From: a virus | Lineage: Duplodnaviria > Heunggongvirae > Uroviricota > Caudoviricetes | DNA: 8,016 nucleotides | Strand: one strand, 5' to 3' | IMG/VR virus record: IMGVR_UViG_2585427776_000001 | Shown here: positions 1 through 8,016 of the stretch, one piece after another | Layout: the number at the start of each line of letters is the position of its first letter | How positions within the stretch are numbered: the stretch's first letter is position 1 | Notes under the pieces: model-generated | Told to the model about the DNA's origin: nothing | What the model saw: the letters and a program-made list of their open reading frames with translations, nothing else | Database searches by the model: none | Translations under genes and position numbers: made by a program

Positions 1-1255
1 AACGACCACCACGCGCCATCAATTGAACAACACGCGTGCCCAGGCGAACATCTTTCACATAGCGGGAATCAAAATTCCCCCAGTTGCTGGGTTGTATCTG
101 ACCGTTAACAGCAAATATTACTGAGTTATCTGTATTTCGCTGACTATAGAAATGCCAGCCAGAATCATCGCCAAGCTCTGCAACAGTTGGCCTTGACGAA
201 GCGCCCCATAAATTAAACCCTACGTTCTTCGTGGAGTTGTTGGAGCTGGATAGCGTGAATTTTTTACCATCCCCGGCCTGAATATTTTTAAAAGCAATAG
301 CCACTCCATTCTGAAAGCGGAATACACGCTGACTATTAGCATAAACATCCAGAATACCGTCTCCATTCTGTTTAAATCCGGTGTCATTATCACCAAGAAC
401 AATAGAGCTACCACCTAACGCATTCGTCGAACCAACTCCAAGACTGCCATTAATGACAGCATTAACCAGAATATTTAGTGCATCCCATTTCAGCGTCATC
501 AGGTCTTTTGTTGTGGTGCTTTGTTTGCTTCTCCATTTGAAATATTCATTGCCGTTGTCGCCTGTTTCAAACCACATGAATGAATCAGTGTCACCATCGG
601 CATCATTTTTAAATCCAATCTTCGCCCAGTCAGTATTTCGAATCCAGGCAAGGATTGAGTCGTTTTCAAAAGTAAGTCCACCGGATAAGGTATCGCCTGT
701 CTTTTGAACGGCGTTACCAGCCTTGTTTACCGTTTCCTGCAAACCGAGGTTTTGGATAAACAGCGGCTTATTGGGAATATCTGCTCCGTTCCGCTCTTTT
801 GCCAGACGGGCATTGGCATTATCCATCGCAATTTTCACCGCTTTTGCGGTGGCTGCCAGCGTTTCACTGGGGCTGTCAGTGGCACTGGTTAGCTGAACGA
901 GTCCTTTTTTGTTCAGGCTGGCATCATAGATATCCAGATTTTCACGTGCTGTACGCTGTGCTGATGCCCCGGCAGTTTTAATTTCGCTGAGGTTATTTTT
1001 TATCAGCAGCGCGTTCTTGTTCATGATGGCTTTAATGGACAGTGCAAGCTGGTTTAATTTTGTTTTATCCGGTTGAATACCGGCTTCTTCCAGCGTGTTT
1101 AATAACTCCGCCTGCACAATATTAAACCAGTCCATGCCGGGCCATGTGATAACATTATTCCCGTCACCTTCTGAAAACCAGCGAACGATAGCACTACGCT
1201 GGGCGGATACGGGCGGCATGACGGTTACGCCGCTGTCGTTATCAATATAAAACAT
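1..1255 (-). CDS. S: Tail fibre protein (Mu S / gp49-like), N-terminal ~417 codons; 3' end runs off the window start
   Basis: Manual minus-strand translation from ATG at 1253-1255 (MFYIDNDSGVTVMPPVSAQRSAIVRWFSEGDG...) is open with no stop down to position 2. Contains the tail-fibre repeat region (DIYDASLNKKGLVQLTSATDSPSETLAATAKAV) typical of Mu S / P1 S / P2 H-type fibres. Start overlaps the stop of the upstream gene (TAATG). Absent from the ORF track because it has no in-window stop. Confidence 0.85.
   Translation of the reverse strand, partial: MFYIDNDSGVTVMPPVSAQRSAIVRWFSEGDGNNVITWPGMDWFNIVQAELLNTLEEAGIQPDKTKLNQLALSIKAIMNKNALLIKNNLSEIKTAGASAQRTARENLDIYDASLNKKGLVQLTSATDSPSETLAATAKAVKIAMDNANARLAKERNGADIPNKPLFIQNLGLQETVNKAGNAVQKTGDTLSGGLTFENDSILAWIRNTDWAKIGFKNDADGDTDSFMWFETGDNGNEYFKWRSKQSTTTKDLMTLKWDALNILVNAVINGSLGVGSTNALGGSSIVLGDNDTGFKQNGDGILDVYANSQRVFRFQNGVAIAFKNIQAGDGKKFTLSSSNNSTKNVGFNLWGASSRPTVAELGDDSGWHFYSQRNTDNSVIFAVNGQIQPSNWGNFDSRYVKDVRLGTRVVQLMARGGR
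734..759. other. gix-like site-specific recombination site (Gin/Hin-family invertase crossover site) inside the tail-fibre gene
   Basis: 26-bp imperfect dyad TTCCTGCAAACCGAGGTTTTGGATAA with central GA core and AAACC/GGTTT inner arms. Differs at one position from the gixL sequence as I recall it (TTCCTGTAAACCGAGGTTTTGGATAA). Its position, about 170 codons into the fibre gene, is where the constant/variable boundary is expected. Confidence 0.65.
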
Positions 1256-1797
1256 TAGTTATCTCCGTCATGGTAAACAAATTTATAAATCTGATGTGCG
1301 GGTTTATATTTCTCCAGTAAACATTCCAGCGCACCCGATTCATAAACACGTAACGGCGTCAGAACATTATCCAGCACCGTTGCGTTGCGATAATTTTTAA
1401 TACCGTAAATATTGACCTGCGTAACCCACTGGCCTTCTGTGGAATCCGTCAGCCTGACGGTAAAACCGTACTGCGCAGCCAGCCATTCATAAAAGCGCCG
1501 ACTCAGATTGCCGGTCATACGCATTTTATTCGCGGCAGCCCGCTGGCGTTCGGACAGGGTGCCGTTTTCGCTTGTACAGTCCGGCAACCCCAGAAATGAT
1601 TCCCACTCCCCCAGATACCAGCGGGATGTGGAAGGGAAACGCTCCCGCAGCATTTGCCGCGCATCATCCGCCGCAGTGGCAATCACGTCGCTGATGGCCT
1701 GCGCCAGCGCAGATAATTTGCTGTCGGGGCTTTTATTCCAGGCAAGCCCTGACGGCAGTAATTGCAGAAAGGCCGTCTGATAGGGTGTTACAGCCAT
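1255..1797 (-). CDS. Baseplate wedge protein, Mu gp48 (R)-like / P2 gpI-like
   Basis: 180-aa ORF (MAVTPYQTAFLQLLPSGLAWNK...); position immediately upstream of the tail-fibre gene and downstream of the J-like gene matches Mu/P2 baseplate synteny; stop overlaps the tail-fibre start, and start overlaps the stop of the preceding gene. Confidence 0.8.
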   Translation of the reverse strand: MAVTPYQTAFLQLLPSGLAWNKSPDSKLSALAQAISDVIATAADDARQMLRERFPSTSRWYLGEWESFLGLPDCTSENGTLSERQRAAANKMRMTGNLSRRFYEWLAAQYGFTVRLTDSTEGQWVTQVNIYGIKNYRNATVLDNVLTPLRVYESGALECLLEKYKPAHQIYKFVYHDGDN

Positions 1798-2870
1798 TCA
1801 ATTGTCCCCGGTGTTAACAGTTCCGTATTCTCCGAACGCTGGATCTCTGTCGGGAAACGCACTTCAAAATCATCCAGACCGGTAACACCTGCCACCGCAC
1901 GGATAATACGGGAGGGGGCAAGTGCGCCGCCCGGCGTCACCTCATTAAAAAACATGGTATTAATGGCGTGAGTAATAGCCTGTTTCAGTTCGGCTGTCTT
2001 CGGTGATATATAAATCCGTGGATTTACCGGCTTTGCCTTTGGCGCAAATACCGTGACATATACACCATCAGGCTGTCCGACAATCAGACCAGTGATCGGG
2101 TCAGTATGACCGGCGATATAATCTGCCACACGTTCCACATCTGCCGGTTGTGGAAAAATATTGCTCCGGTTATCCATAACAAACGTCACCCCGACTGTGC
2201 CACCGCCTTTCCATGTCGGAAAACACCAGGCACGGGTAACGCCGCTGACTTCACGCGCCCAGCGAACATAATCAAACTGATTACCGCCGAACGGAGGATA
2301 CTGGACACGATATTCCAGCCGTGACAGCAGCTCCGCTGCACTCTCAATATCAGCCCCACCGGAAAACCCTTTTACAGTGATGGCATCGGAAACAACACAG
2401 GCAACCGGAGTGATCAACGTTAAAAGGGTATTCTCACCGGTATTTCCTGCTTCACCGGCAGCCAGTGCGGTAACGGTAATTTCCGTCGTTCCTGCACGGT
2501 CAATCACAATGGCATCAGCCAGGCTGTAAACCACACCATCAGCACGCTGCCAGCGTGTACCGGCAGGAATGGTGGTCGCTGCCGATGTGGTGACAGTCAG
2601 CGGGCCGCTGGCGGCTGTCGCCTGTTTGCGGCGCACGCCCCAGAACCGGCAGTGCTCCAGCAACTCATCTTCATCTGCTGTCGACGGGATAATCTGCCGT
2701 CCAACCCATGAAATATGCTCGTGACAACCGGCAGCAAGGCCCGCCTGAGCATAAGCAATGGCGCTCAGCGTTTTTTCACGGGCCTGAGGCCAGCTACCCG
2801 GCAGGCGCTGTTCAATATTCTGTTCTGTACGGGCAATCAGCGATGATAATGTCGGTGGTGAATAAGCCAT
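1788..2870 (-). CDS. Baseplate J-like protein, Mu gp47 (W)-like
   Basis: 360-aa ORF (MAYSPPTLSSLIARTEQNIEQRLPG...); size and position typical of the baseplate J family; start ATG 2868-2870 directly abuts the stop of the upstream gene (TAAATG). Confidence 0.85.
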   Translation of the reverse strand: MAYSPPTLSSLIARTEQNIEQRLPGSWPQAREKTLSAIAYAQAGLAAGCHEHISWVGRQIIPSTADEDELLEHCRFWGVRRKQATAASGPLTVTTSAATTIPAGTRWQRADGVVYSLADAIVIDRAGTTEITVTALAAGEAGNTGENTLLTLITPVACVVSDAITVKGFSGGADIESAAELLSRLEYRVQYPPFGGNQFDYVRWAREVSGVTRAWCFPTWKGGGTVGVTFVMDNRSNIFPQPADVERVADYIAGHTDPITGLIVGQPDGVYVTVFAPKAKPVNPRIYISPKTAELKQAITHAINTMFFNEVTPGGALAPSRIIRAVAGVTGLDDFEVRFPTEIQRSENTELLTPGTIEWL

Positions 2871-3308
2871 TTAAACCCCGTTAAATGCTGCTTTAAACTC
2901 ATAAGGAATAACGGAACCATCCGGTAATGTCAGTGCAATGTAGAGGTATAACCAGCCCTGATGTAACTGTTCCGCTCTGACGTTAATCGCACTTACCCGG
3001 CCCGCTGTTTTCAGCCATTCCAGCGCCTCTTCGGCATACCCTCTGGCGCGTTCCAGCGTATCCGGTGTGGCTTTTTCACGTGATAACAGCCACAACCGCG
3101 AACCGATGGGGCGGTCGCGGTAACTGTCCCCCCACCATCCACGGCGATCATCTGAACCATCCGGCAGCGTGTCAGAATCCAGCGCGCGCCGGTCGGTAAA
3201 CAGGGAGATTGTCACATCGGTTGTCAGGCTGTCGTCGGTCAGCATATCAATGCCATCCTGTGCAATATCGCCGCGCCCGTTCGTCCAGATAATGGCTAAA
3301 TCGGTCAT
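2871..3308 (-). CDS. Baseplate protein, Mu gp46 (V)-like / P2 gpW-like (phage GP46 family)
   Basis: 145-aa ORF (MTDLAIIWTNGRGDIAQDGIDMLTDD...); small acidic protein between the spike and J-like genes as in Mu/P2 baseplate operons; ATGA start/stop overlap with the upstream spike gene. Confidence 0.8.
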   Translation of the reverse strand: MTDLAIIWTNGRGDIAQDGIDMLTDDSLTTDVTISLFTDRRALDSDTLPDGSDDRRGWWGDSYRDRPIGSRLWLLSREKATPDTLERARGYAEEALEWLKTAGRVSAINVRAEQLHQGWLYLYIALTLPDGSVIPYEFKAAFNGV

Positions 3309-3898
3309 TGCATTGGCCCCGTGGTTCCGCCGCTGTCGCCACGGTGGATATGCTTATCCGTCGATTTGCCATTGATGATGGCATCCGGGGCAGTAATATT
3401 GCTGTCGAACTGGCTTTTACCTTTAACGCCCAGACCTTTCTGGATCTCAACGTCGCCGGTAAACGTGGTTCTGGGTGTGTCAACGGTCATACTTTCATCA
3501 GCGTAAACCTCGACCGTTTTACAGGTAATGATGCAGCGTCCGTCCTTTGTCAGCCTGATACGATGCCCCTCATGGTGGTAAATGCCTGCATCACCCGGTT
3601 CAAGATTTGTCGGGCGGTAGCGGCGGTCTTCCACCACAACAGCAATCCCCTGATCACGTTGTGCGCCTACACAGGCAATCAGCGCCTCTGCGCCCGGCAG
3701 GGGAACGCTGAAATGTCCGTAATTTTGCAGGCGCTCCACTTCATCGGATTCCTCATCATCCAGCAGACCGACCTGCAGGTTCTGAACTTTTCGCCCGTCG
3801 TTAATCACGTTAACAACGGCACGCGCAAGCATCAGGCGCACACGACGCATCAGCGGTGTCAGCAGGCGGTTCATGGCGGAATCATTTACTCTTTCCAC
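3305..3898 (-). CDS. Baseplate central spike / assembly protein V-like, Mu gp45 (Q)-like
   Basis: 197-aa ORF ([35 protein letters not shown]...), with a C-terminal segment ending KSTDKHIHRGDSGGTTGPMQ; size and synteny fit the gpV/gp45 spike family. Confidence 0.85.
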   Translation of the reverse strand: MERVNDSAMNRLLTPLMRRVRLMLARAVVNVINDGRKVQNLQVGLLDDEESDEVERLQNYGHFSVPLPGAEALIACVGAQRDQGIAVVVEDRRYRPTNLEPGDAGIYHHEGHRIRLTKDGRCIITCKTVEVYADESMTVDTPRTTFTGDVEIQKGLGVKGKSQFDSNITAPDAIINGKSTDKHIHRGDSGGTTGPMQ

Positions 3899-5025
3899 GG
3901 CGGCGTTTTCTCCGGGTGTCTGCGATAATAATCTTCAACCAGCGCATCAATACCGCCGTTACTGTCGCCGCCTTTCCTGTTTTTGCGGTCGCTTTCAACC
4001 GGCACCAGAAAGCCTTCGCGTGGTGCAAGGCTGACGCGGGTTTTCAGCCCGTCCTGGTCATTCAGTATCAGGGTGACTTTGCTGACCAGTAATTCTGTGG
4101 TTTTGATGGCATATTTCGAGGCATCAATAGTGACCAGCAGGTTCGGCATCCAGAGTTGCCCGTCCTTGCGTGTCCATCCGTCAATTTCTGCCTCAAAGGT
4201 GATGGATTTTGCCAGTCTGCGGCGTTGCTCACGCAGGGCGCGGGCCTGTGCATCCTTCGCCGTAATTTTGCTGTCGGCAATGATGATCATCGGTCTGTAA
4301 CGGGTCACATCACTGTCAGTGGCGGTCCCTTTCCGGGAGACGATACTTTTCGCATCAATATCATCACCCTCAGCACCATTTGCGCGGGCATACCCCTTGA
4401 CGGTGTATTCGCTGAACCGGTCGCGGAAGTCTTCCTCAAAATCCAGTGTTAGCAGATTTTCTCCGAGAACCAGCTCATCAGTGGCTGTGCTGGCAGCCCG
4501 GCTGAATACCAGCTCTCCGGCGGCATTGCTGGTCATCAGTACACCGCGTGCGCGGGAGGCACGCACCAGCGCCTCATAAACGGTTTCTGAATGGTCCAGC
4601 GTGAAGCCGGGAAAAACTGCCGAACTTTCCTTATCGGAAAGCTCCCAGCGAACGGTAACGCCATAAGGGGTGCACAGGTCACGCGCAATCTGCTCCAGTG
4701 TGCGGTTTTTCCATTGTCCGCCACTGTAAACGGCAGCACAGTCAATCAGGTCAGCCGTTTTGTCACGTCCGGCGATAGTGATTTTCATACTGTCAGCGGT
4801 CATCTGGCGTCGCCGTGAATCGATATAACCGGTGCAGACAATCTGCCCCTCGATTTCCAGCGTGAACTTCTTCCCCGGTGCCAGCCCGGATAAATCCGTG
4901 CCCGGTGGCACGTTCACCCCCAGCTCAAAATATCCGGCTACGGATTCAATCGAGCGGGTGACAGAGACTGACGTCCAGCCGGTAAAAAGCCTGCCATCCG
5001 TTCGCAGCGTGACGGTATTACTCAT
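3886..5025 (-). CDS. Baseplate hub protein, Mu gp44 (P)-like / P2 gpD-like (late control D family)
   Basis: 379-aa ORF ([37 protein letters not shown]...); position between the N-like and spike genes; overlaps both neighbours by a few codons. Confidence 0.85.
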
Positions 5026-6088
5026 TAATCACCTCAATACTGACACCACCGGGAACAAACAACGGGTTGCTGATACCGTTCCTGCGGGCCAGCCGTTGCC
5101 AGTTCCGGCTGTTTCCTGTGTAACGGTACAGAGCCACCATTGCAGGCATCGTCTCCGGCAGGCGGTGCGTTTCACTGCCCGCCAGTTGCAGCCCGCGTTT
5201 TTCCAGGTCGGCAACAACCAGCAGACGCAGTTGCGTAAGCTGAACGCTGTCTGTCGAAAAGCCCTGCTCAGATGCCGTCAGAATGACGGTATCCAGCGCT
5301 GCCCCCAGCATGGCGGCTGTTTTTCCGATATCGGACACACTTTCAAATACCGGGGGCGTGGCTGTACCACTGTCTGAAAAGGATACCTGTGAAAAGCCGC
5401 CGTCCGGGGTTATGGCAGTTAACTGTAACTGTCCCTGTGTGACGGTAGCGGATGTGCTGCTGGCCCCGCTGGCTGTGCCGGTTGTGGTGGACGGGGCATC
5501 CAGTACAGGTGCACGGGCGGCATTATCCATCCGGCGACTGAAATCCAGTGCCGCAGTCAGTGCCTGGCTTGCTGCCTCCGCCCGGTATGTCTGTGCTGCT
5601 GCCAGCATGACGTAGTTCAGTGTGGCAATATTTTTTTCTGCAACCGGACTGTTGTACGAGGTTGTGATTGTCCCCTGTCTGCCTGCGGTGGCGGCATGGC
5701 GACGTTCGAATCGCTGCGCCAGACGGTTCCATGTGGAAAATGCTGTCCGGGTATCGCATAACGATGAAACGCCGGACAGCGCCCCCATCAGCGAGGAGGC
5801 CAGCATGGCAGGCTGGTTAATCAGGCTGGTCACAGAGCCTTTCATCGCAGAAAGCGATCCCATCAGACCGCTGACAGTCTGCGTAACCCCCAGATTGTCC
5901 ACCGCATCACTGATATCATCGATGACACCGGTTACAGCTTCCATCACGGCGGTTGCCGCCGCAGTGCCATCTTTTACGGTCTGCCAGACAGAGGACAGCG
6001 TATCTCCCAGAGAACCGGTTACAGCAACGGCCTGTGCCGGTACGGCTGCACTGGTGTCTGTCTCTGCGTCCGGGGCAGTATCCTGCAA
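5018..6088 (-). pseudogene. DNA circularization protein N (Mu gp43)-like, apparently 5'-truncated remnant
   Basis: 356 codons in frame with the downstream baseplate genes (ends ...[21 protein letters not shown]). The frame stays open upstream to 6118 but has no ATG/GTG start with a Shine-Dalgarno (the track's start is a TTG), and the first ATG is about 49 codons in. The upstream end abuts the transposase remnant in another frame. Truncation is inferred from my recollection that Mu N is considerably longer; this needs alignment to confirm. Confidence 0.6.
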
Positions 6089-6095
6089 CGACGGA

Positions 6096-6218
6096 TATCT
6101 GTCGAAACACCCACTGTTCTAACCTTGCTTTACGAGAGATCGCGCTAGAGGATTTTGGAAGACCTATCAGCCCTTCTAATTTCTTTGCAGAAAACCAATC
6201 ATTACATTGTGGTTGCAT
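6096..6218 (-). pseudogene. A: Transposase A N-terminal fragment (about 40 codons of the operator/enhancer-binding winged-helix domain), fused out of frame to the N remnant
   Basis: ATG at 6216-6218, 2 nt after the ner stop. [41 protein letters not shown] is clearly paralogous to the repressor N-terminus in this same window ([35 protein letters not shown]), as expected for the Mu/D108 A and c pair. Similarity stops after about codon 41 and the reading frame then runs through the N remnant in a different frame (track ORF 5916..6224). Confidence 0.65.
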
Positions 6219-6220
6219 TT

Positions 6221-6439
6221 TCAATACCTCGAAGGCCAGATGTCTCGTGGCTCAACTCCCAATGCATCGGCAATGATTCTTTCCCCCCGAGGGTAAGGTT
6301 TATCCAAGGCATTTTTTACCGTAGAGATAGAGAGACCGTTCTCACGACCAAGAGCTGCTAGGCTTTTTCCTCTTTTGCGCAGATCAGCAACAATGTCGTA
6401 TCTACTTTTGTCTTCACATTTACTTTTCTTTATCGCCAT
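6221..6439 (-). CDS. ner: Ner-family DNA-binding transcriptional regulator (Mu Ner / Nlp-like)
   Basis: 72 aa from ATG 6437-6439 ([72 protein letters not shown]), with GAGGA 9 nt upstream. The C-terminal WPSRY and overall pattern match the Ner/Nlp family; divergent from the repressor gene as in Mu. The track ORF starts 3 codons earlier at a TTG. Confidence 0.85.
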
Positions 6440-6448
6440 AAAATGCAA

Positions 6449-6639
6449 TCCTCACAAGCTACGCCATCAGCTACGCCGCAAGGTAGCTGATAAGGTATGC
6501 AGCAATGCTAGTGTGAATACATTGTCAATGCAATAGTGTATTCAAATGTTTTGTTTGAAATTCATCTATCTCGATGATTTTAAAGTGAATATATTTTTCA
6601 TTTCTTTGAATACATCGTGTATTTAAAGCGAGGTTTGTG
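6449..6639. promoter_or_regulatory. Divergent early-promoter/operator region between ner and c (Pe/Pc with operator repeats)
   Basis: AT-rich 190-bp intergenic region with repeated TGAATAYA motifs: TGAATACA 6514-6521 paired with inverted TGTATTCA 6537-6544; TGAATACA 6607-6614 paired with inverted TGTATTTA 6618-6625; TGAATATA 6586-6593. A TTGACA hexamer on the minus strand (plus 6523-6528) lies between the first pair. Exact promoter elements and transcription start sites are not determined. Confidence 0.5.
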
Positions 6640-7155
6640 ATGACACAAGAATGGTTTTCAGCTAAAGAGCTACAAGGGGTTGCTGGTCTTCCGTCTTCAG
6701 CAAGTAGTATTAGCCGCAAAGCAACTAATGAGGGATGGAAAAAGAGACAGATCAAAGGAGTAAAGGGTGTTGCTTATGAATACCATATCAGCTCATTACC
6801 TGATGCCACTCAGGCAGAATTAGGAGGGGCGCAGTTATTAGATAACGATAAGTCAGCTTATAAGTTAGCTTCTGTGTTAATGGCTTTGGTTGCAGAGTTA
6901 GAACCAGAGGAAATCCAGAGGGCATTAAAGCTACTTAGTAAAGGTGGACTTAGTGCACTAATGCCAAGTATCTTTGATCAGACTCAAATCCAATCTCTGC
7001 ACGGCGTATCGCGTGAGTGCATACAACTCGCCCAAATGCTAGAAACTTTACCAGCAGAAGAGCGCAAAGAGATTTTGTCAGAGCATGGTATTCATGAACA
7101 GGAAAGTCTTGTAGCTCCTTCGCAAGAACCACAAGATGTAAAAAAAGCCGTATAA
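6640..7155 (+). CDS. c: Prophage repressor c (Mu Repc-family; immunity specificity appears non-Mu, possibly D108-type)
   Basis: 171 aa from ATG 6640 (GAGG 7 nt upstream; track ORF starts one codon earlier at GTG 6637). N-terminal winged-helix domain paralogous to the A remnant; C-terminus (...[29 protein letters not shown]) resembles the Mu repressor C-terminal tail as I recall it; transcribed toward the Mu left end as in Mu. Confidence 0.85.
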
Positions 7156-7321
7156 CAACCATGAACCAGCTAAAACATACTTCACCTCACATAATCACAC
7201 ATGTAACATACCTAAACGGCATGAGCTGATTTGTGATATGAGTCATTTGGTTACAGCCTGGTTGTTATCGGTTTTGAACGTTTTTTGAAGCTGTTATTGA
7301 AATGATTTGCAGTGTTTTTGT

Positions 7322-7493
7322 TTTTCGTATTTTCAATGAAACAAAAGCAATTTTTTACTATCTTTCGCGTTTCATTGATTAACGACTAAAATTTGCGCTA
7401 CAGGCTTGCAAGCCCCACCAAATCTAATCCCATCAGATCCCGAATAATCCAATGTCCTCCCGGTTTTTTTCGTACTTCAAGTGAATCAATACA
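7322..7493. repeat. Mu-type left end (attL) with three MuA-binding-like repeats (L3-like 7322-7340, L2-like 7362-7379, L1-like 7467-7485) and terminal ...CA at 7492-7493
   Basis: On the bottom strand the three copies align as TTCACTTGAAGTACGAAAA (L1), ATCAATGAAACGCGAAAG (L2) and TTCATTGAAAATACGAAAA (L3). Their spacing from the terminus (about 9-27, 115-132 and 154-172 bp) matches the L1/L2/L3 arrangement known for Mu. Confidence 0.8.
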
Positions 7494-7762
7494 CCGACAA
7501 TAAGCTTTATACCGGGATCACCACGGATGTCGAACGCCGCTATCAGCAGCACCAAAGCGGCAAAGGGGCGAAAGCACTGCGCGGGAAAGGAGAACTAACG
7601 CTGGTGTTTTCCGCGCCAGTGGGCGATCGTTCGCTGGCGTTACGGGCGGAATATCGCGTTAAGCAACTGACCAAACGGCAAAAAGAGCGTCTGGTAGCGG
7701 AAGGCGCAGGGTTTGCAGAGCTGTTAAGCAGTCTGCAAACCCCGGAGATTAAAAGCGATTGA
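7494..7762 (+). pseudogene. yhbQ: yhbQ (GIY-YIG nuclease-superfamily protein, UPF0213), 5'-truncated by the prophage insertion
   Basis: Host-derived reading frame ...[88 protein letters not shown] matches E. coli YhbQ as I recall it from about residue 12 onward. The first ~11 codons are replaced by Mu-end sequence (track ORF 7481..7762 starts at a GTG inside the Mu end). Confidence 0.75.
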
Positions 7763-8016
7763 AATGCTCGTGATACTCAACCAGGCCGGTAACGCCATTC
7801 AGCGCGTCATCCGCTAAACGATGTACCTGGAAGGCGCTTTCAGTGCCCGGCCAGCGGCAACGCAGATCGTGATGCGCCGCCAGTTCAAAGCCGAAACGAC
7901 TGTACAGCGCCGGATCGCCCAGCGTCACCACTGCGGCATAGCCGAACTCATTAAGCGAATCGAGTCCTTCATAGACCAGTTGGCGTGCCAGCCCCTGTCC
8001 ACGGTATTTTTCATCA
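7749..8016 (-). CDS. yhbS: yhbS, GNAT-family N-acetyltransferase, C-terminal part (N-terminus beyond window end)
   Basis: Minus-strand frame open from the window end ([88 protein letters not shown], stop 7749-7751); convergent with yhbQ and overlapping its 3' end, as in the E. coli yhbQ-yhbS locus. Confidence 0.8.

Follow-up and report, generated by a model that had tools for sequence, protein, structure and literature searches.

The closest described relatives of the element analyzed here are the isolated phage PhiR68_1 (PV340575.1, 37,128 bp) and a prophage of Escherichia coli 2014C-3075 (NZ_CP027447.1, about 764.3–801.1 kb), both of which are complete, at about 37 kb. PhiR68_1 and the 2014C-3075 prophage share with this element the left end, the repressor gene c, ner and the start of the transposase gene A (97.7% and 99.7% identity, respectively), as well as the block extending from N to gp48 (98.5% and 98.8%), with the genes in the same order and on the same strands. 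Phages Mu and D108 (genus Muvirus) also have a similar left end, an N-P-gp45-48 block that is 97–99% identical and an identical late promoter P_P, but differ in the operator-proximal half of c, ner and the 5′ end of A, where the present element represents a third immunity type. Defective phage derivatives are known as well. The laboratory mini-Mu and Mud units, for which the requirements in cis and in trans have been reviewed (PMC3145075), are internally deleted elements that keep the left end, c, ner and the operator/enhancer but carry no transposase. The "grounded" prophages, for example, the cryptic prophages of K-12, have likewise lost genes for replication, lysis and morphogenesis through internal deletion, such that the repressor and scattered structural genes remain; this class of defective prophages has been reviewed, too (PMC6379469).

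The window, that is, the whole stretch of DNA that we analyzed, consists of 8,016 bases and corresponds to the entire draft contig JOQP01000044.1 (assembly GCA_000714145.1), in reversed orientation. It contains a prophage that, compared with the two complete relatives, lacks the 25.1 kb that separate A codon 41 from N codon 137. The minus strand carries, in this order, ner, a stub of A, a truncated N, P, gp45, gp46, gp47, gp48 and the start of the tail-fiber gene S, whereas c is located on the plus strand. We consider it highly probable that this arrangement originated through a single internal deletion of about 25.1 kb in a prophage of the PhiR68_1 immunity type, via illegitimate recombination at a 2-bp microhomology.

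The host flank occupies positions 7494–8016 and consists of the 3′ part of yhbQ (plus strand, interrupted) and part of yhbS, as indicated by identity to K-12 and by Pfam matches of the called genes (GIY-YIG and acetyltransferase). Up to position 7494, the flank is 100% identical to K-12 and to many other E. coli, in which the site is unbroken. The left end of the prophage, attL (7300–7493, minus strand), could be read directly and by comparison with Mu and D108: the terminus is of the Mu type (5′-TG...), starting with 5′-TGTATTGATTCACTTGAAGTACG at position 7493, with yhbQ host DNA beyond it. The stretch from 7493 to 7036 is 95.4% identical to Mu positions 1–458, and the D108 annotation places transposase-binding sites in the stretch equivalent to attL. 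The five host bases adjoining 7493 are the candidate left-side target-site duplication. The contig ends inside the tail-fiber gene, so that the right end of the prophage lies beyond the window. The prophage breaks yhbQ (7481–7762), which is named a DNA damage response exodeoxyribonuclease in RefSeq, near its 5′ end, and gene callers produce a 93-aa product there that starts within the phage end. The insertion site differs from that of the 2014C-3075 prophage, which resides in ddpA, and none of the 5,426 complete E. coli genomes carries a Mu-like insertion at the yhbQ site.

The immunity region includes a divergent c/ner module, as expected of a Mu-like prophage. The repressor gene c (6640–7155, plus strand) is intact, encoding a protein of 171 aa that matches the Pfam family HTH_Tnp_Mu_1 over its full length (4.4e-23) and was confirmed by comparison with the relatives. 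Its sole residue difference from the 2014C-3075 repressor is in the C-terminal part, at codon 153 (position 7105), where Ser is found in place of Gly. On the opposite strand, ner (6221–6439, minus strand) is also intact (72 aa; HTH_35, 2.4e-25) and identical to ner of 2014C-3075; in PhiR68_1, the homologs of c and ner are annotated as "repressor" and Ner, respectively. The intergenic region between c and ner (6440–6639), which is 97.7% identical to that of PhiR68_1, is presumed, from its position and synteny with Mu, to contain the operators/enhancer and the divergent promoters Pc and Pe; a simple promoter scan found no site upstream of ner or elsewhere in this region. The immunity region is a mosaic: positions 7036–7493, comprising the left end and the 3′-terminal portion of c, are Mu-like, and the stretch 6097–7035, with the remainder of c, the operators, ner and the beginning of A, belongs to the third immunity type, as in PhiR68_1. 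The latter portion shows about 75% identity to D108 over part of its length and has no DNA match to Mu, and the mosaic structure implies a putative recombination point within c, near position 7036. The repressor together with the operators should still confer immunity against phages of the PhiR68_1 type, as judged from established Mu biology.

Immediately downstream of ner, the similarity to transposase genes is cut short. Over positions 6500–6096, the ner-A block matches E. coli 2014C-3075 with 100% identity, and the BLAST alignment ends at 6096. What is left of A are codons 1–40 of 666 (6099–6218, minus strand), identical to the N-terminus of the 2014C-3075 transposase, with the ATG at 6218 corresponding to the start annotated in both 2014C-3075 and PhiR68_1. 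An earlier note on this DNA, made from the sequence alone, had recognized that about 40 codons of A remained, which proved correct, but had described them as the winged-helix domain; the stub matches HTH_Tnp_Mu_1 only at positions 1–30 of 134, at 18.6 bits, below the cutoff of 23.3, and thus represents a fragment of this domain. With 40 residues, it would be too short for winged-helix folding. The DDE_2 domain, located at residues 260–476 of the intact transposase, is lost in its entirety, and the combination of a DDE_2 transposase A with an AAA+ ATPase B is missing from this prophage, B being within the deleted interval.

On the other side of the junction, the match to N starts at position 6097 in every record, equivalent to Mu coordinate 26616 and to N codon 137. 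In Mu, N is annotated at 26208–27695 and consists of 495 codons, so that codons 1–136 are absent here. The truncated gene (gp43, DNA circularization/baseplate hub protein) spans positions 5018–6097 on the minus strand and comprises codons 137–495, without a native start; across these 359 codons, the predicted protein differs by one residue from residues 137–495 of intact N. We detected no Pfam domain in the truncated N, because DNA_circ_N, which corresponds to residues 24–113 of the full-length protein, lies in the lost part. The earlier note had pointed out that N lacked a recognizable start, and indeed the first 136 codons are missing along with the whole of DNA_circ_N; the possibility that the gene would turn out to be full length did not materialize. 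No in-frame start linked to a Shine-Dalgarno sequence was found near the 5′ end of the truncated N, which is probably not made. By all appearances, both the A stub and the truncated N would be non-functional.

An ungapped three-way alignment places the deletion junction at positions 6096–6097 (minus strand), where the 2-bp microhomology TA is common to the A and N parents, and the ends of the BLAST blocks agree with this location. Given that both flanks are 98–100% identical to intact phages up to one point, a chance match is of no concern. The A-frame codons are counted from 6098 and the N-frame codons from 6097, so that N is one base off the A frame, in agreement with the earlier claim of an out-of-frame fusion of the A 5′ end to a 5′-truncated N. 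That note had further predicted two collinear blocks, at about 6096–6218 and 5018–6090, that would be separated by more than 20 kb in phage coordinates. We observed blocks at 6096–6218 and 5018–6097, and the junction points are 25,144 bp apart in PhiR68_1 (record positions 1403 and 26547) and 25,143 bp apart in the 2014C-3075 prophage.

The resulting fusion open reading frame (5916–6218, minus strand) consists of 100 codons, namely, 40 from A, one at the junction and 59 read out of frame from N DNA, and terminates at the TGA at 5918–5916. In a large gene collection, neither a 100-aa nor a 102-aa form of this frame is on record as a called gene, in contrast to the product of the truncated N, which is. 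A promoter-like pair of hexamers, TCGACA and GATACT with a 17-nt spacer, extends across the junction (6105–6077, minus strand; 9 of 12 matches). We considered, and rejected, a new promoter made by the fusion: the scan yielded one site compared with a mean of 3.3 in shuffled controls, that is, the chance level.

The product of the truncated N appears in RefSeq as WP_248783587.1 (5018–6088), under the name "multidrug DMT transporter permease", and many other partial N proteins in the 90% cluster of this protein bear the same transporter name. This 356-aa called gene is a C-terminal fragment of N, and the transporter name is a propagated mis-annotation.

Given that the window is a short draft contig (8,016 bp), that the sibling contigs break nearby, in the tail-fiber gene, and that the evidence for the junction comes from assembled sequences rather than raw reads, we considered an assembly mis-join, whereby a complete 37-kb prophage would be present and its A and N regions would have been wrongly joined. 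The exact 356-aa truncated-N product is found in JOQP01000044.1, JOQT01000015.1, JOQN01000015.1 and the Logan reassembly of SRR1186685; a contig in IMG/VR, identical to the window over positions 734–6220, also carries the junction. The junction is thus reproduced, at the level of assembled sequences, in three NCBI assemblies, one Logan reassembly and one IMG contig, and the copies differ by 0–5 substitutions. A mis-join is very improbable in the face of the same junction in three separately sequenced NCBI assemblies, an independent Logan reassembly and the IMG assembly, in one case (JOQT01000015.1) inside a 130-kb contig. Furthermore, the two shared parental bases fall far below what a k-mer overlap error needs, and the contigs break at the gix site of an invertible segment, an ordinary cause of such breaks.

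The recurrence of the junction is best taken as reproducibility. According to the NCBI protein records, at least one of the three assemblies is named E. coli 5-172-05_S4_C3; the 5-172-05_S4 isolates are, presumably, sibling colonies from one stool sample, as the style of the strain name suggests. The strain name and the small number of substitutions (0–5) indicate that the isolates with the junction are, to all appearances, closely related, and that the recurrence does not reflect independent origin. The junction was not detected in any of the 5,426 complete E. coli genomes (BLAST, no spanning record), nor, in exact-match scans, in the GTDB representative genomes or JGI metagenome contigs. The literature search found no paper on the assembly or run accessions. 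The presence of the junction in several assemblies, combined with its absence from all 5,426 complete genomes, argues for a real deletion confined to one isolate set, and we regard the deletion as recent and private to one lineage, as opposed to a native gene order. Accordingly, no related intact phage in which A and N are natively adjacent, an arrangement that would have contradicted the earlier interpretation, turned up among the phage records and complete genomes searched.

In the 2014C-3075 prophage, the deleted interval includes, besides the remainder of A, 35 complete CDS. Among these are early and regulatory genes, namely, B, gam and two Mor-family activators (mor and the late activator C); the endolysin and other lysis genes; the genes for the terminase, portal, protease and major head protein; and the tail genes for the sheath, tube, tail-assembly protein and tape measure. 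The prophage therefore has the makeup of an internally deleted one: two collinear blocks joined at one point and a gene cut short on either side of it. The loss of the transposase and most of the structural genes, suggested in the earlier note, is borne out by the disappearance of nearly all of A and the 35 whole genes, and so is the retention of c, ner and the baseplate block, all of which are intact (0–5 residue differences); attL and the start of S are intact, too.

The alternative to a loss of these genes is a rearrangement, in which the 25-kb segment would now be at another location in the genome, or the strain would have an additional, intact Mu-like prophage, so that all phage functions would be kept. 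With a single end of the element in view, a rearrangement of greater complexity is conceivable as well, and multiple Mu-related regions are common in E. coli, in up to 4 places per genome and, in a second search, up to 9. We nevertheless find this quite improbable: the two blocks are co-oriented and in the order expected of a simple deletion. As a weaker argument, no viral contig of taxon 2585427790 in IMG/VR, a database limited to predicted viral regions, contains the sequence just inside either breakpoint, and the scan for the missing segment returned only other genomes.

The following succession of events would account for the structure of the prophage under the favored scenario of a single deletion. 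A Mu-like prophage with the immunity type of PhiR68_1 would have inserted into yhbQ of a K-12-like E. coli, and one illegitimate recombination event would then have eliminated about 25.1 kb, from A codon 41 to N codon 137, at the microhomology TA; a single recombination at a 2-bp microhomology appears to be the simplest mechanism. Such deletions usually persist because selection favors the loss of lethal early and lytic functions. Other origins of the junction were discarded. A deletion mediated by a transposase or an IS does not fit because a Mu end is found on neither side of the join and an IS is lacking. An engineered mini-Mu or Mud was rejected as well, given that the immunity region is of neither the Mu nor the D108 type and there is no marker at the join. 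Compared with mini-Mu and Mud, this remnant is natural, derives from a microhomology deletion, carries no marker and keeps tail genes.

Downstream of the junction, the genes for the baseplate are preserved. P (gp44, baseplate hub; 3886–5025, minus strand) is intact, with 379 aa, and matches the Pfam family GpP-like; its length is that of the intact relative, with 5 residue differences and no internal stops. The genes gp45, gp46, gp47 and gp48 (baseplate spike and wedge; 1255–3898, minus strand) encode proteins of 197, 145, 360 and 180 aa, respectively, as in Mu, with 0–1 residue differences and no internal stops, and match the Pfam families Phage_Mu_Gp45, GP46, Baseplate_J and Phage_Mu_Gp48. 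Within the 3′ part of N, the late promoter P_P is located at positions 5360–5426 (minus strand), by correspondence with the Mu annotation (AF083977, 27287–27353); over 101 bases around the promoter, the window is 100% identical to Mu. The earlier note had placed the baseplate operon downstream of, and co-oriented with, the early promoter. This is indeed the case, with the amendment that the operon also keeps its own promoter, P_P, the activator of which, C, is lost.

The baseplate genes would probably be silent in this prophage, for two reasons: P_P requires the deleted activator C, and read-through from the early promoter would have to traverse 890 untranslated bases, the distance from the stub stop codon to the start of P, over which Rho-dependent termination would be likely. 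A scan of the minus strand from ner to P yielded no predicted intrinsic terminator.

The tail-fiber gene S (1–1255, minus strand) runs off the end of the contig, and its called product matches Phage_fiber_2 and Gp34_trimer. A gix inversion site is located inside S, at positions 734–759, with 1 mismatch to the sequence that we take to be that of Mu gixL and 0 matches expected by chance. The stretch 39–759 matches, in inverse orientation, the alternative fiber arm of the 2014C-3075 prophage, which indicates that the G segment is apparently flipped here relative to 2014C-3075. At positions 732–734, two sibling contigs stop, as does the IMG/VR contig. The available sequences suggest that both G orientations are present in the sequenced cultures and, hence, that an invertase is active.

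Given that c, ner and the complete set of baseplate genes are intact and share the orientation of the early operon, and that the fiber switch of the G segment is seemingly present, the element could be imagined to have a native architecture, that is, to be a reduced, satellite-like or domesticated element combining an immunity module with a baseplate/tail-fiber module. We regard this as vanishingly improbable. Both genes at the join are broken in mid-domain and out of frame; the flanks are 98–100% identical to those of complete phages, which leaves no time to adapt; among the collections searched, the arrangement is found in one closely related isolate set only; and, without the sheath, tube and tape measure, no tail-like particle is possible. 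A tailocin or a domesticated tail module was also examined and dismissed: the sheath, tube and tape-measure genes are all deleted, and the A stub adjoins the truncated N.

Taken as the product of a single deletion, the prophage is a member of the Muvirus lineage by descent, but a functionally defective one. The description that fits it best is a very young "grounded" prophage, a case of ordinary prophage decay; compared with grounded prophages in general, it is very young, with a single lesion and with genes 98–100% identical to those of active phages. Because A and B are deleted, the remnant would not be capable of replicative transposition on its own and, because the lysis, head, sheath, tube and tape-measure genes are deleted, it would by itself cause no lysis and produce no particle. 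The earlier statement that such an element cannot transpose holds for autonomous transposition and goes too far as a blanket claim, given that mobilization in trans has to be considered. Of the two ends that a mini-Mu requires, the left one is present and the right one lies outside the contig. If the right end is kept, the remnant might act as a natural mini-Mu that would be mobilized, amplified and even packaged by a Mu-like phage, co-resident or superinfecting, with a compatible transposase, a scenario to which we give a small chance. For the same genome, IMG/VR lists no region that would supply such a helper transposase, which is a weak argument. Were it true, the element would be a parasite of related phages that excludes its own immunity type and carries a spare, invertible tail-fiber cassette.

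The remnant is harmless and probably still immune. Beyond annotation, the deletion is of little consequence; it provides a clean, datable case of the first step of prophage decay, in which one microhomology deletion disarms the phage and leaves the immunity genes intact, and the 5-172-05_S4 isolates may serve as a test bed for the protection afforded by a repressor-only Mu remnant.
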